IMG/VR virus record: IMGVR_UViG_2660238061_000004
Origin: a virus
Taxonomy: Duplodnaviria; Heunggongvirae; Uroviricota; Caudoviricetes
Length of the DNA stretch: 26,702 nt
Reading direction: 5' to 3' (one strand)
Shown here in pieces: positions 2,905-16,095 of the stretch (positions within the stretch are counted from its first letter, which is position 1; each line of letters opens with the position of its first letter). The translations under genes were made by a program, and so were the position numbers. The notes below the pieces were generated by a model. It worked only from the letters and a program-made list of their open reading frames with translations. It ran no database searches and had not been told where the DNA came from.

Positions 2905-2933
2905 TTGACACTCTAAATTCGATAGTGAAAACA
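2905..2933 (+). promoter_or_regulatory. putative sigma70 promoter for the plus-strand moron
   Basis: Exact TTGACA at 2905..2910; the downstream -10 is poor (AAAACA / TAGTGA region), so this is weak. Confidence 0.25.
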
Positions 2934-2969
2934 TGAACATTGATTCCCACCACCAAAAGGAGTTTTGAA

Positions 2970-3167
2970 ATGAGCACTAAAGCAGAATTGTTAGCGAAGA
3001 TGGATCGCATGGCAGATGAGTGGTCACGCACCACTGGCCTCAACAATGACTATGTTGAGGGCGAGCGTTACACCAAAATCAAAGACCAACTTGCAGCGCT
3101 CGGGGTGAACGCTCGCATTGATGCCGTAGAGGGTAATTCAGCTCAATTCAGGGTTTATGTAGATTGA
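2970..3167 (+). CDS. small hypothetical protein (moron inside the head module, opposite strand)
   Basis: ATG at 2970 preceded by AAAGGAG seven nt upstream; 65 aa (MSTKAELLAKMDRMADEW...); stop TGA 3165..3167; followed by a hairpin plus T-run. Confidence 0.55.
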   Translation: MSTKAELLAKMDRMADEWSRTTGLNNDYVEGERYTKIKDQLAALGVNARIDAVEGNSAQFRVYVD

Positions 3168-3182
3168 GAAAGCCTCCCTCCC

Positions 3183-3210
3183 AGCCATCCTTGTGATGGC
3201 TTTTTTATTT
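3183..3210 (+). terminator. rho-independent terminator after the moron
   Basis: agccatc-cttgt-gatggct stem-loop followed by TTTTT; no T-run on the opposite strand. Confidence 0.5.
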
Positions 3211-3962
3211 CCTGGGATTTGGCACCTGCACTTCCGGCCAGCATTTGCAGTTCGGCAGGCACCCGGCGTGCCCGGTCATACCGTCCAGCGTCGGCGGGTT
3301 ATCCCAGCGCACAAACTTATCTTTCATCCAGCGATGTGAATCGCGCGTTCCGGCCCCTTCGATGCGCCACCAGTAGCCCTCAGAGCCAATCGACTCAGCG
3401 CGCGCCTGGGTGAGCGCTGTCGTGGCCCGGCCGATTTCGGTGCGGGCGATCATCTTCGCGCGGCTCTCTGCCACGTCGCCGGACTCCATAATCATCCGAT
3501 AGAGCGCGTCGGGGCGCTCACCGTTTATGACGGCTTCCATTGCGCGCTCCTGGATGTCACGAACGCGGTCGGCAGCTTCCAGCGGAAGAGATTTAATCAG
3601 CTGCACCTGCGGGATACGATGTCCTGAGCCACGAACCCCACCGGCGTATTGCCGACAACATCCCGCAGCCCCTCAGAGATTTCCTGCGACACAGAGCGCC
3701 ACTGGTTCCACTCCTCCTGCTCAACCTGCAGGAACATGCGTTTGGCTACCCGGTCGGCCCAGTCGTCAATCAGCAGCGAGTAATCTATCAGCCGGGCGCT
3801 AACCTGCTCGGCGCTCGCTTCCGAACCATCGTAGGAGCCAGTTACTATCGCGCCGCACTGACGCGCTATCTCCTGTAGACTTTTCTGATACTGGCGCTCC
3901 GATTTGCGGCGGAGGTTCGGTTTCAGATTCAGCCTCCTCCCATTCTGCTTTGGCATCTTCAA
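3205..3962 (-). pseudogene. phage head morphogenesis protein (Mu F / SPP1 gp7-like) split by a frameshift near 3600
   Basis: Track ORFs 3597..3962 (121 aa) and 3205..3606 (133 aa) are adjacent in different frames and together give a full-length protein; the downstream frame stays open upstream of its first start. May be a sequencing error rather than a true pseudogene. Confidence 0.55.
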
Positions 3963-12987: not shown

Positions 12988-13005
12988 AATGGCCCCCATT
13001 GCATG

Positions 13006-13050
13006 TACTGTGTTTTTATACAGTATACCTATGCGCGGAAATGATCAACG
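13006..13050 (-). promoter_or_regulatory. SOS box (LexA operator) overlapping the -10 of the dinI-like promoter
   Basis: TACTGTGTTTTTATACAGTA at 13006..13025 fits CTGT-N8-ACAG; on the minus strand TATACT overlaps the box and TTGATC lies about 15-16 bp upstream. Confidence 0.65.
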
Positions 13051-13094
13051 TTTTAAGAGCACAAATTGTTAATTTTCTGTCAGTTGTAAAAAAA

Positions 13095-13117
13095 GAAAAC
13101 CCGCCGTAGCGGGTTGA
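13095..13117 (-). terminator. rho-independent terminator for minus-strand transcription, left boundary of the AT-rich island
   Basis: aacccgc-cgta-gcgggtt perfect stem preceded by an A-run on plus (T-run on minus). Confidence 0.5.
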
Positions 13118-13478
13118 ATTAGCAGTGTTATATTAAGCGGCAATTTCTTTCTGCCGGCACAATCCCGAGAGATTCGCCCTCTGTATCGCATCATCAATGA
13201 GCACCTGTATGACCATGAGGCAAAGCGTTATCCAACTTGCATTCATCTTTTTCAATCAGCAAAGGAGTGGTTAGTGCTGTGAGTGGGCTTTGTTCACTTC
13301 ATGGTAGATAAATCAGCTATGGATAAGTGATAAGAGGTGAAATCAATCCGAATTAACAACCTGAAGCACATTAATCGGAACACAGATATTAAAATCCTAA
13401 AGTCTAGTAACAAATAGCCGATATGAGATATTGCTTATCAGTTTAAAAATCATCTATTGAAAAAATGGGGGGGAGGCG

Positions 13479-14042
13479 TTGAAGCGAGTAGAGCGCGATT
13501 TTATCTGTCTGTTTAATTGTGTGTGGTATCAAGATTTCCCTGTGTTCAAAGGTGAATATATCAACCGTTCCAACTGGACCATTCATGTTGGCCTGGTCAT
13601 GCGCGAGTGTGCAAAGTTAATGGGCGCAAGAACATTTTTTGAACAAGGCGGGCGTACCGATGCGGTCCTACAATATCCAGACAATCAAATTTTAACCTAT
13701 GTTGAGTGGGAGTATAATCAGGCAGACAGAGATAGCGTTAACGAGTTAGACAAACTGCTTGAAAAAAACGACAAGTGCTATTTCTCCACATTCATCTCAT
13801 ATTGTCAGCATGAAAACATCAATATTGTTATTGAAAAAGCAAGTAGAATATGGAGTGAAGCAAGCAGGCCTTTGATTTTTTTTCTTATCACCTATGAGCC
13901 TCAAACGAAAAAACGCCGCCATTTTTTAGAACTCAGAACTTATTTTTTCTCAAACGGCAAAAGAAAACTAGTTCGCAAACAACCTGCGCTTCCATGGGAT
14001 ATTGAGCAACGAAAATACAATGTCGAAGAAGATGCAGGATAG
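13479..14042 (+). CDS. orphan 187-aa protein, AT-rich, function unknown
   Basis: TTG start with strong GGGGGGAGG SD 3-4 nt upstream; roughly 40 percent GC by eye versus a GC-richer backbone; opposite strand to the surrounding phage genes. Confidence 0.5.
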   Translation: MKRVERDFICLFNCVWYQDFPVFKGEYINRSNWTIHVGLVMRECAKLMGARTFFEQGGRTDAVLQYPDNQILTYVEWEYNQADRDSVNELDKLLEKNDKCYFSTFISYCQHENINIVIEKASRIWSEASRPLIFFLITYEPQTKKRRHFLELRTYFFSNGKRKLVRKQPALPWDIEQRKYNVEEDAG

Positions 14043-14081
14043 AAGAGACATAAGGTTTTCACGACAGTCTCGTTCCGAGCC

Positions 14082-14463
14082 CTAACTAAAATATTCTGTT
14101 CGGAGCAACCAAATAGCTCTGGCTTTGCTGTGACCATGTTCGCGGTACCAACGCCTCTCTAGGTCCGCTTCTCGCTCATGGTGGACCAAAATCAAATCTA
14201 AAATGACGTGGCTAAGCGGGAGTACATAGTGAATGACAGGATGCTCCGGGCAGCACCATACTAATTCAGTTCCCGTCAGAGGTAGGCGTTGCTTCATGAT
14301 GGGATGAGCGCTCCCTCCAGACAATCCATGCGACAGCCGCCTCCCATGATATATATCCATTACCGCCATTTTTCGCTCTGCGGAGATTAACTGCATCACC
14401 AAACCTTTCAATGATGAATTTTTCAAATTCTATGCGTTTTTCTTCGTCGATTGTTGAATCCAT
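14082..14463 (-). CDS. pair of overlapping small ORFs (65 aa and about 71 aa) or one frameshifted gene
   Basis: Upstream frame MDSTIDEEKRIEFEKFIIERFGDAV... ends at 14266; second frame has a GGAGGGAG-ATG start near 14303 and runs to 14082 (MKQRLPLTGTELVWCCPEHPVIHYV...). Confidence 0.35.
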
Positions 14464-14530
14464 ACCTTCCCCAGAAGAGTCCTACGAATCGCTCTTATTG
14501 CATAAAAAATAGCATATACAATAGAGAGTG

Positions 14531-14550
14531 AAAAACCGACGTAGCGGGTT
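14531..14550 (-). repeat. degenerate second copy of the 13095 hairpin element
   Basis: aaaaaccgacgtagcgggtt versus aaaacccgccgtagcgggtt at 13097..13115; same orientation; stem is imperfect in this copy. Confidence 0.35.
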
Positions 14551-14742
14551 AACTTTATGTTACTCATGAGTCTTGTCTCGCTGCGACTTAAAAGCGGAAC
14601 ATTCTCGCGCAAGTTGCGTTGCTAAAGCTACGGGGTTGAATGGCTCTCCATGCCCATTTAAGAAGGCATGCGGTGTGTAGTTGAACGTTATTTAAAACAC
14701 AGATAGAATCAAGAAAAATCCTAAATAAATGGAATATTGTTT

Positions 14743-15123
14743 ATGGCTAAGAAAATCGCATTACTGGGCTTTTCTGCTCTTTTTGTTGCAAGTGTTGCTT
14801 TTGCTGAAACGACAAGTAACTGGGTTGAGGTTACTACAGCTGATGATGGCATTTTTTCAGCAAAAAAAGGCACATTTAGAAATGTAAAAGGTGATTCATC
14901 TGCCTTGTTCATGTATCAAACAAAAAATAAAAAAGTAGAGTACTACAAAGTTAGTATTAAAGATGCCGACTGTGATAGTGGATATGGGGAGATAAGATTC
15001 TTCTATATGGATGGGAAATTAGCTTTCAAAGGTGATTATGTTGCTGATGGGAACAGTGTTGGCGCAGGTATTGGTGATTTTATGTGTGGAGTCAGAATTG
15101 GACTTAACACACAAAAAAGTTAA
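14743..15123 (+). CDS. small secreted/periplasmic protein, function unknown
   Basis: MAKKIALLGFSALFVASVAFA signal peptide (AFA-E cleavage motif), about 105-aa mature domain with two Cys; AT-rich; no strong SD. Confidence 0.55.
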   Translation: MAKKIALLGFSALFVASVAFAETTSNWVEVTTADDGIFSAKKGTFRNVKGDSSALFMYQTKNKKVEYYKVSIKDADCDSGYGEIRFFYMDGKLAFKGDYVADGNSVGAGIGDFMCGVRIGLNTQKS

Positions 15124-15163
15124 ATGAGGGGCATTTGTTAAAAAACAATAGCCCCACATTAGA

Positions 15164-15365
15164 TCAATATTGGCTCCGGCATTTCTGGATAAAAGCTTCT
15201 ATGCTACGGCGCTCATAGCGAACAATCTTAGCGCTGAACTTTACACGGGGCCAATGTAGACCGGTGTCGGTGTTCTGTATTCCATTTACATAATGTTTTT
15301 TGCGTAATTCCCAGCTTCTGGCATACCTCGCCCGGAGTGAGGAGATCATCAGGTTGCTCAGTCAT
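15164..15365 (-). pseudogene. AlpA-family HTH regulator remnant, frameshifted
   Basis: ATG 15363..15365 with GAGG upstream gives MTEQPDDLLTPGEVCQKLGITQKTLCKW...; the track ORF 15164..15349 in another frame continues with GLHWPRVKFSAKIVRYERRSIEAFIQK, which fits the C-terminal half of an AlpA-type protein. Confidence 0.4.
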
Positions 15366-15537
15366 GTTATGCCTCGCTGTTATCTGGGGTGATGATTAGC
15401 AGCTTCCAGATGGCTGAGACATACATAGCCTGATGTTTCGCATCGACTAGGGCATTATGCATGTCACCTTCAAACGGCATGTCCCGAGTTCTCCCTTTTC
15501 GCCGCTTTCGCGTCGCATATTCTCCAAACGGTATTTA

Positions 15538-16095
15538 TCAATCATTACTGTTATCCTCGCAGTAGTAGTGCCGTCCCTCTGGGTCAGTAGATACATGTCC
15601 GCAGATATCGCATTCAATTCCAGGAAGCACCGATTCTGACTGCGCTTTGATATGCAGTCGCGGTTCACCGTCTTTCGGCTCTGGCCACTGGCGGTTTTTG
15701 TTAACCGCCAGCTTTTCTACCATCGCCAGGGTAATCTGCTTATCACTGATACCGGCACGACGTTGCGCATCCCATAACAGGAATTGCATGTCAGCCCATT
15801 CGCTCATCTCGTCTGGTTCCGCAGCAGCCTCGATAGCTTCTTTGGAAAGGTGCTTCAGCGGACCAACTGGACCGACATCGCCGAATGTTTCATCTGACCA
15901 TGCTGCATGTTCACAGCGTACCTGCTCACGGGCTATCGACTCCAGAACCCCATCAATCACCTTCACTGCATCAGCCATTGCGTAGCCGAGATTACCGCCG
16001 TCGCTTTGTGCTGCTGCTTTGCTGAGTATTTCGCGTATCTGGTGCAAGCGATCAAGTGATACAGGACCGTGCGCCGGGTGGTTGTTAGTTGTCAT
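15538..16095 (-). CDS. phage protein with MazG-like NTP pyrophosphohydrolase-type region (DUF550-like) and C-terminal Cys cluster
   Basis: 185 aa; segment EMSEWADMQFLLWDAQRRAGISDKQITLAMVEKLAVNKNRQW resembles MazG/DUF550 proteins from memory; CDICGH...YYCEDN at the C-terminus. Confidence 0.45.
   Translation of the reverse strand: MTTNNHPAHGPVSLDRLHQIREILSKAAAQSDGGNLGYAMADAVKVIDGVLESIAREQVRCEHAAWSDETFGDVGPVGPLKHLSKEAIEAAAEPDEMSEWADMQFLLWDAQRRAGISDKQITLAMVEKLAVNKNRQWPEPKDGEPRLHIKAQSESVLPGIECDICGHVSTDPEGRHYYCEDNSND

Follow-up and report, generated by a model that had tools for sequence, protein, structure and literature searches.

The DNA analysed here is IMG/VR virus record IMGVR_UViG_2660238061_000004, a stretch of 26,702 nucleotides from a virus of the class Caudoviricetes; this whole stretch is referred to as the window. 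Our analysis focused on one gene on the plus strand, which starts with an ATG at 14743 and ends with a TAA at 15121-15123. The gene encodes a predicted exported protein and is carried by a compact cassette among phage genes. A preliminary description, made from the letters of the window, had presented it as an AT-rich prophage gene for a small secreted protein and had raised the possibility that it is a moron.

A conserved gene in a lambdoid prophage

The 1.1-kb region 14400-15500 is 99.7-99.9% identical to three complete Escherichia coli chromosomes, and RefSeq twins of the locus carry the same coding sequence, annotated as hypothetical protein WP_053271636.1. A copy with 99.7% identity is present in strain NCTC11023. 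One RefSeq-annotated twin revealed a lambdoid prophage around the gene, which confirms the prophage location given in the preliminary description. In the twins, the gene is located between the DinI and DUF550 genes, with replication genes beyond. The twin prophage has tail, head and terminase genes and a holin-lysozyme-Rz1 lysis set, followed in the annotation by a Q-like antiterminator, RusA, Nin-type genes, DinI, the cassette region, DUF550, a replication protein and YdaT. It also contains a cI/cro-like pair, RecE/RecT and an integrase adjoining kch. The host element is a Rac-like lambdoid prophage. All flanking phage genes are on the minus strand, opposite to the gene.

The start codon is supported by homologues. 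A common start methionine is found throughout an alignment of 22 sequences, and a few deposited sequences have N-terminal extensions. An alternative TTG start at 14737 was ruled out because the homologues begin at the methionine of the ATG at 14743. We estimated the ratio of nonsynonymous to synonymous substitution rates (dN/dS) from 11 aligned gene copies, whose proteins are 71-95% identical to that of the window. The 55 pairwise comparisons gave a median of 0.18 and a maximum of 0.28; taken separately, the signal peptide has a value of 0.29 and the mature part one of 0.16. The plus frame is therefore a real gene under purifying selection and not a chance open reading frame (ORF). Two ORFs on the minus strand, 14721-14912 and 15019-15159, were considered as the real gene instead and were rejected, since it is the plus frame that is conserved, shows this low dN/dS and has homologues. 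No known RNA element was found in 13000-15700 by an Rfam scan.

As the preliminary description stated, the gene is AT-rich. Its GC content is 0.365 (0.26 at third codon positions), whereas the whole window has 0.523 and the sampled phage genes have 0.50-0.59. The gene is also rare. At any level of similarity, the cassette is carried by 7 of the 5426 complete E. coli genomes, on four chromosomes and three plasmids. The gene is present in 4 of 185,579 species-representative genomes; by contrast, it is found in 26 IMG/VR viral contigs. A tblastn search with three family members against 50,697 deposited phage genomes gave no match.

A single-gene cassette in unrelated contexts

The limits of the cassette were determined by comparing the window with 30 loci carrying a homologue. 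The cassette is about 460-480 bp long and contains one gene. In the most divergent contexts, which include the IncFIB plasmid pHNAH968, chromosomes of Enterobacter, Citrobacter and Raoultella and other IMG/VR contigs, the similar stretch extends from 14680/14681 or 14694 to 15121-15143. Directly upstream of the cassette, the terminator of an unrelated gene is found in several loci.

A promoter-like site is located at the left end of the cassette, and the left homology breakpoint lies just 5' of its -35 hexamer. The -10 hexamer ends 34 nt 5' of the ATG. By itself the promoter scan is weak evidence, with two sites seen and 6.7 expected in shuffled sequences. Conservation is more informative. In 13 copies of the cassette, taken from different contexts, the two hexamers and the distance between them are preserved, and the spacer sequence diverges. 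The -35 hexamer appears as TTGAAC, TTGTAC or TTGAAT in these copies, and the -10 hexamer as TAGAAT, TAAAAT or TAGACT. The site is probably used as a promoter in the lysogen.

A stem-loop is predicted at the right end. It has a folding energy of -17 kcal/mol and a z-score of -3.7, and none of 200 shuffled sequences was equally stable. Most copies of the cassette retain a G-rich/C-rich hairpin here, and the right boundary of the cassette falls within or near it. It may act as a terminator or as a stabiliser of the transcript.

The contexts of the cassette are diverse. In the window, it is inserted in the early-gene region of the Rac-like prophage, between replication and Nin-type genes. It also occurs where an integrase island at tRNA-Thr/proA (the thrW island) ends, and on non-mobilizable plasmids with sizes of 107-133 kb. 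Among these plasmids, pHNAH968 has Rha-family and S24-peptidase genes of the phage-regulator type. A 35%-identical relative in another lambdoid prophage is located between the Q antiterminator and the holin, also on the opposite strand, and another relative adjoins phage lysis genes. Because the upstream gene varies between contexts, the cassette has no conserved partner gene.

Morons are recognised by an upstream promoter-like site and by being discrete insertions that are present or absent among related phages and deviate in base composition, and these features were found here. Classical lambdoid morons, as defined by Hendrix and colleagues, include lambda bor and lom and those of the HK97/HK022 type. 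Like them, the element is a single gene with a promoter-like site and a 3' hairpin, placed on the opposite strand between phage genes. It also shares their deviant base composition, their patchy presence among similar prophages and a predicted envelope protein as product. Unlike in the classical cases, the hairpin has no U-tract, and a terminator scan gave no call there. The product also differs from Bor, Lom, Cor, Sie and other known moron products in having no sequence relation to them in PHROG, Pfam and PADLOC comparisons. By its anatomy, the element appears to be a moron, that is, an autonomous single-gene cargo cassette. This supports the suggestion of the preliminary description, through the promoter-like site, the 3' hairpin, the opposite strand and the recurrence of the block in unrelated prophages, the thrW island and phage-like plasmids. 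We are highly confident of the anatomy of gene and cassette as described here.

Several observations concern the neighbourhood of the cassette. The DUF550 gene (15538-16095, minus strand) matches Pfam PF04447, a dATP/dGTP pyrophosphohydrolase, with an E-value of 7e-41, and thus represents a nucleotide-pool enzyme in the prophage early region. Directly downstream of the cassette, the minus-strand ORFs 15164-15365 and 15367-15486 correspond to a truncated pseudogene with a 3'-5' exoribonuclease domain in the annotation of the RefSeq twin. This suggests that the cassette landed in or beside a decayed phage gene. Upstream, a second AT-rich ORF (13479-14042, plus strand, GC content 0.40) has a TTG start and encodes 187 residues. 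It is a hypothetical protein in RefSeq and has no match in Pfam or PADLOC. This ORF is absent in related prophages (loci L020-L025), where the cassette directly abuts the DinI segment, and it seems to be a further, independent insertion of cargo. A two-gene module formed with this ORF was considered and rejected, since the upstream gene in pHNAH968 is unrelated and the ORF is absent in other cassette-bearing prophages. In the thrW island of E. coli XYEH3934 (locus L042, 6593-6922), a gene for a YecR-family lipoprotein immediately precedes the cassette, so that the end of this island holds two small exported-protein genes side by side.

A predicted exported protein with two invariant cysteines

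The precursor begins with MAKKIALLGFSALFVASVAFA/ETTSNW, in which the slash marks the predicted cleavage site. The signal peptide is composed of a basic n-region (MAKK), a hydrophobic core of 14 residues (IALLGFSALFVASV) and an A-x-A cleavage motif. The cleavage site was assigned from the sequence by the von Heijne -3/-1 rule. The leader contains neither a cysteine or lipobox nor a twin-arginine motif, and it is therefore classified as a Sec signal cleaved by signal peptidase I (SPase-I) rather than that of a lipoprotein or Tat substrate. The product is likely exported by Sec, cleaved after AFA and resident in the periplasm as a soluble protein.

The mature part has 105 residues, a mass of 11.5 kDa, a pI of 6.5 and two cysteines. 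Cys77 and Cys115 are invariant among 22 close and 145 distant homologues, and they probably form a DsbA-dependent disulfide bond. The preliminary description had recognised a Sec signal peptide and a mature domain of roughly 105 residues with two cysteines, and both agree with our analysis: the n-region, the hydrophobic core and the AFA/E motif can be identified in the sequence, and the two cysteines are invariant. The features of the locus are listed in Table 1.

Table 1. Features of the cassette and its gene in the window
Feature	Positions	Strand	Basis
Sigma-70-type promoter-like site, -35 TTGAAC, 17-bp spacer, -10 TAGAAT	14681..14709	+	Consensus scan and conservation
5' leader, conserved, with weak Shine-Dalgarno-like TGGA at 14730-14733	14710..14742	+	Sequence reading, cassette alignment
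Coding sequence, 126 residues and stop, precursor of predicted exported protein	14743..15123	+	ORF, alignment, dN/dS, RefSeq twins
Predicted signal peptide, residues 1-21, Sec/SPase-I type, cleavage AFA/E	14743..14805	+	Sequence features
Mature domain, residues 22-126, predicted antiparallel beta-sheet and helices	14806..15120	+	
Cys77 codon, just past strand 65-73, motif DC-x-x-G-Y/F-G	14971..14973	+	Invariant in alignments
Cys115 codon, in C-terminal helix, presumed disulfide partner of Cys77	15085..15087	+	Invariant in alignments
Predicted stem-loop GGGGC..TTTGTT/AACAA..GCCCC, beginning 5 nt past the stop codon	15128..15155	+	Folding and conservation

A broad protein family

A word-indexed search found 38 close relatives in Escherichia, Citrobacter, Kluyvera, Klebsiella and Raoultella, all annotated as hypothetical. 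An exhaustive search with a hidden Markov model (HMM) of 1.8 billion cluster representatives, clustered at 50% identity, identified 365 proteins with E ≤ 1e-3, including 72 with E ≤ 1e-10. A third search with a profile of 145 sequences added almost nothing. Family members are mostly 115-150 residues long. A hydrophobic N-terminus is present in 131 of 147 representatives. Beyond residue 25, two cysteines and no others are found in 115 of the 118 single-domain members. A lipobox-like motif occurs in only about 6-8 of the 147 distant representatives and in none of 22 close homologues.

Conserved residues are distributed over the mature domain. Cys77, Gly82 and Cys115 are invariant across the 145 representatives. 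Trp27 is invariant in an alignment of 28 sequences and present in at least 90% of the 145, and Lys41, Gly80 and Gly103 are nearly invariant. The family consensus is W..v(a/t)...(K)KG(S/T)f...yyk..(v/i)s..DC..G(y/f)G...f..l.G...f..DYV..G.SvgS.igd..C.

Several members have more than one domain. Tandem two-domain proteins account for about 16 of the 150 representatives listed (P0045, P0048, P0049, P0109 and others). In P0168 the domain is located C-terminal to a Trypsin_2 periplasmic protease domain, and P0160 is membrane-anchored and contains two copies of the domain. P0098 is listed alongside these proteins.

In Kluyvera, Atlantibacter and Burkholderia, more distant members stand alone on the chromosome, beside unrelated metabolic and regulatory genes. 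Klebsiella plasmids of 5.5 kb with an inovirus-type Gp2 replicase carry a 33%-identical homologue as essentially their only cargo. In one of them, the Klebsiella pneumoniae plasmid NZ_LR890297 (locus L003, 5585 bp), the homologue occupies 2917-3321 and is located 22 bp downstream of a helix-turn-helix gene, in the same orientation.

No source searched gives a name to any member of the family. The window protein has no match in Pfam, PHROGs, NCBIfam or PADLOC. No recurrent family emerged when first 28 and later 145 relatives were scanned with Pfam, and a search of PHROGs with the 145 relatives matched five phrogs with one member each, four of unknown function and one annotated as protease. In Pfam, PHROG, NCBIfam and PADLOC there was no match to the lysozyme inhibitors Ivy, MliC/PliC, PliG and PliI, to the superinfection-exclusion proteins Cor, Llp, Sie, Imm and Sp, or to defence systems. 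The preliminary description had stated that it would be refuted if the protein confidently matched an unrelated family that is already characterised; such a match was looked for in the sequence libraries, and none was found. Literature searches found no paper on the exported family, nor on Adhesin_E/PF16747 proteins, which are discussed below, in phages. A moron encoding an envelope protein is of a well-known kind; the sizeable exported family to which this product belongs is described by no library.

Predicted structure and comparison with protein E and PseM

Structure prediction, which the preliminary description had proposed, was performed with AlphaFold2 and the 22-sequence alignment. The mean predicted local distance difference test (pLDDT) score is 82, with values of 89-94 for 10-residue blocks over residues 31-120. 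The signal peptide is modelled as a low-confidence helix (residues 5-21, pLDDT below 50). The model contains strands at residues 27-33, 36-41, 46-48, 51-60, 65-73, 81-87 and 93-100. A short helix at 74-79 contains Cys77, and the C-terminal helix at 106-125 contains Cys115.

The predicted fold resembles those of protein E (PE) of Haemophilus influenzae and of PseM/TdeM of Pseudomonas aeruginosa; the core topology and the position of the disulfide appear to be common to all three. A Foldseek search with the model against the PDB gave nothing below an E-value of 0.2, and sequence searches of the PDB with three family profiles found nothing relevant. The profiles did not match the PseM/TdeM chain at E ≤ 10.

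PE (PDB 3ZH5 and 6GUS; Pfam PF16747, Adhesin_E) has a six-stranded antiparallel sheet and a C-terminal helix (PMC6652776). Its single disulfide, Cys99-Cys148, connects this main helix to the end of beta4, the central strand (PMC6652776). Our model agrees with this fold of an antiparallel sheet packed by a C-terminal helix. By their positions in the topology, Cys77 and Cys115 correspond to PE Cys99 and Cys148, respectively, and the two cysteines are 38 residues apart in the window protein compared to 49 in PE. The identity in the structural alignment is 4%.

Sequence comparison gives a different result. PF16747 matched neither the window protein (E ≤ 1) nor any of 28 relatives (E ≤ 0.1) or 145 relatives (E ≤ 1). 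The gathering score of this Pfam family is 23.7 bits, and the positive controls, PE and the phage protein ME3_191, scored 66 and 24.9 bits, respectively. Profile-profile comparison by hhalign of a 152-member family profile with PE or with a 37-member PE profile gave probabilities of 0.3-35%, which are not significant; both cysteine pairs align. The family thus seems to have a PE-like fold and the same domain limits, yet it does not belong to PF16747 by sequence.

ME3_191 was examined as a possible link. This protein of Acinetobacter phage vB_AbaM_ME3 (locus L046, 14906-15346) is hypothetical in GenBank and has a signal peptide and two cysteines. It is a true member of PF16747, with a match extending from its tryptophan to its second cysteine, so that a PE-like exported protein is also encoded by a jumbo phage that is strictly lytic. 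ME3_191 ranked first of 337 phage ORFs with both the family HMM and the PE HMM. A connection of the family to PF16747 through this protein was rejected, since the matches have a modest E-value of about 0.004 and hmmsearch aligns only its N-terminal tryptophan region with the family HMM. No further homologues of ME3_191 were found in phage or plasmid collections.

[quoted passage not shown] TdeM of PDB 9M3L is probably the same protein, judging from name, organism and chain length. Like PseM, the window protein has a Sec signal and is predicted to be a soluble periplasmic protein with a beta-sheet core and a helix presumably stapled to it by a disulfide; topologically, Cys77 and Cys115 correspond to PseM Cys87 and Cys134. 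In PseM, beta8 and alpha5/alpha6 (residues 145-186) mediate a head-to-tail dimer and form part of the substrate crevice. The tandem two-domain forms in our family hint at a dimeric functional unit, like the dimers in the crystals of PE and PseM.

Despite the similar architecture, the protein should be filed neither in PF16747 nor with PseM: it does not match PF16747 by sequence and has no lipoprotein signal like that of PE, and the C-terminal extension and immunity partner of PseM are absent. The predicted structural kinship to PE and PseM gives a useful lead but does not demonstrate a mechanism. For the functions suggested in the preliminary description, namely superinfection exclusion, inhibition of lysozyme or another target, and virulence, these two resemblances are the only leads.

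Proposed role and alternatives

We propose that a sigma-70 promoter belonging to the cassette would drive its transcription in the lysogen, in the direction opposite to that of the flanking phage genes. Sec would export the precursor, which would be cleaved after AFA, and DsbA-type oxidation would join Cys77 at the end of the central beta-strand to Cys115 in the C-terminal helix. This would produce a soluble 11.5-kDa periplasmic protein with a sheet-plus-stapled-helix fold, which may function on its own in the cell envelope as a binding module. By binding and blocking an agent that acts in the periplasm, it would shield the lysogen. Examples of such agents would be the muralytic or ejection proteins that an infecting phage brings in, or a toxin that targets peptidoglycan. 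The product would then be a superinfection-exclusion or immunity-type factor of lysogenic conversion.

A stand-alone binding module is favoured because the protein lacks a catalytic extension, a lipid anchor and a partner gene, and because some relatives contain the domain in tandem and one has it attached to a periplasmic protease. Whether the product is a non-enzymatic periplasmic binder we consider evenly balanced. A protective role in exclusion or immunity is possible and on the doubtful side; both the ligand and this role are speculative. Taken as a whole, a lysogen-expressed periplasmic binder with a protective role is our best explanation, and a tentative one that we place somewhat short of an even chance.

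The product may instead be a general envelope accessory protein that hitch-hikes on mobile elements, such as a small periplasmic chaperone or a binder of metals or small molecules. The breadth of the family, with its 365 clusters, agrees with this, as do the isolated chromosomal genes of distant members beside unrelated genes and the absence of a neighbour conserved anywhere. The close clade, however, is found almost entirely on prophages, islands and phage-like plasmids, and both the E. coli genomes and the species representatives show how seldom it occurs. Since rarity and mobile-element distribution fit niche-specific cargo better than housekeeping, we regard an accessory function as unlikely.

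The resemblance to PseM raises the possibility of a minimal periplasmic muramidase or peptidoglycan-binding factor, which would remodel the wall, aid lysis or harm competitors after release. The window protein ends at residue 126, 11 residues past Cys115, whereas PseM continues for about 50 residues beyond Cys134; the missing part contains the equivalents of beta8 and alpha5/alpha6, and with them the dimer contacts and part of the crevice. PseM is toxic in the periplasm and requires the adjacent immunity gene PA0990. In contrast, the cassette consists of one gene, with no cognate immunity gene adjacent and no neighbour conserved across contexts, and a lytic enzyme made constitutively from a moron promoter would harm the lysogen. 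Where homologues adjoin lysis genes, they are encoded on the opposite strand. The profile searches matched no PDB chain at the sequence level. A PseM-type activity is very unlikely on these grounds.

Equally improbable is a virulence or fitness moron that, like lambda Bor and PE, would bind matrix components or complement regulators of the host, such as vitronectin, laminin or plasminogen, and thereby favour adhesion or serum resistance. PE is a lipoprotein of the cell surface and a chromosomal adhesin of Pasteurellaceae, whereas the window protein is prophage cargo in Enterobacteriaceae. Like its 22 close homologues, the window protein has an SPase-I site and no lipobox, which leaves nothing to anchor it to the surface or direct it there. 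In addition, none of the 145 representatives reaches PF16747, the profile-profile comparison is not significant, the structural alignment has 4% identity, and the mapped host-binding regions of PE are not conserved in sequence.

Implications

Temperate phages alter the phenotype of their hosts mainly through morons, most of whose products are unnamed. Our analysis describes a compact mobile cassette together with a broad family of exported proteins that is covered by no domain library. The predicted structure links this family to two proteins with very different jobs, an adhesin used as a vaccine antigen and a periplasmic muramidase toxin. The family could be a large branch of a PE/PseM superfamily without a Pfam entry, comprising either a one-gene envelope 'shield' spread by phages and islands, which would be a new class of exclusion or periplasmic-toxin immunity, or a stripped-down peptidoglycan-active protein with the PseM fold; we consider this quite unlikely. 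If the product is a protective binder, it would represent a new one-gene envelope defence. If the link to PseM is true, a new fold of peptidoglycan hydrolases would extend into enteric prophages. Either way, the family merits definition as a domain, and the cassette is small enough for direct testing.
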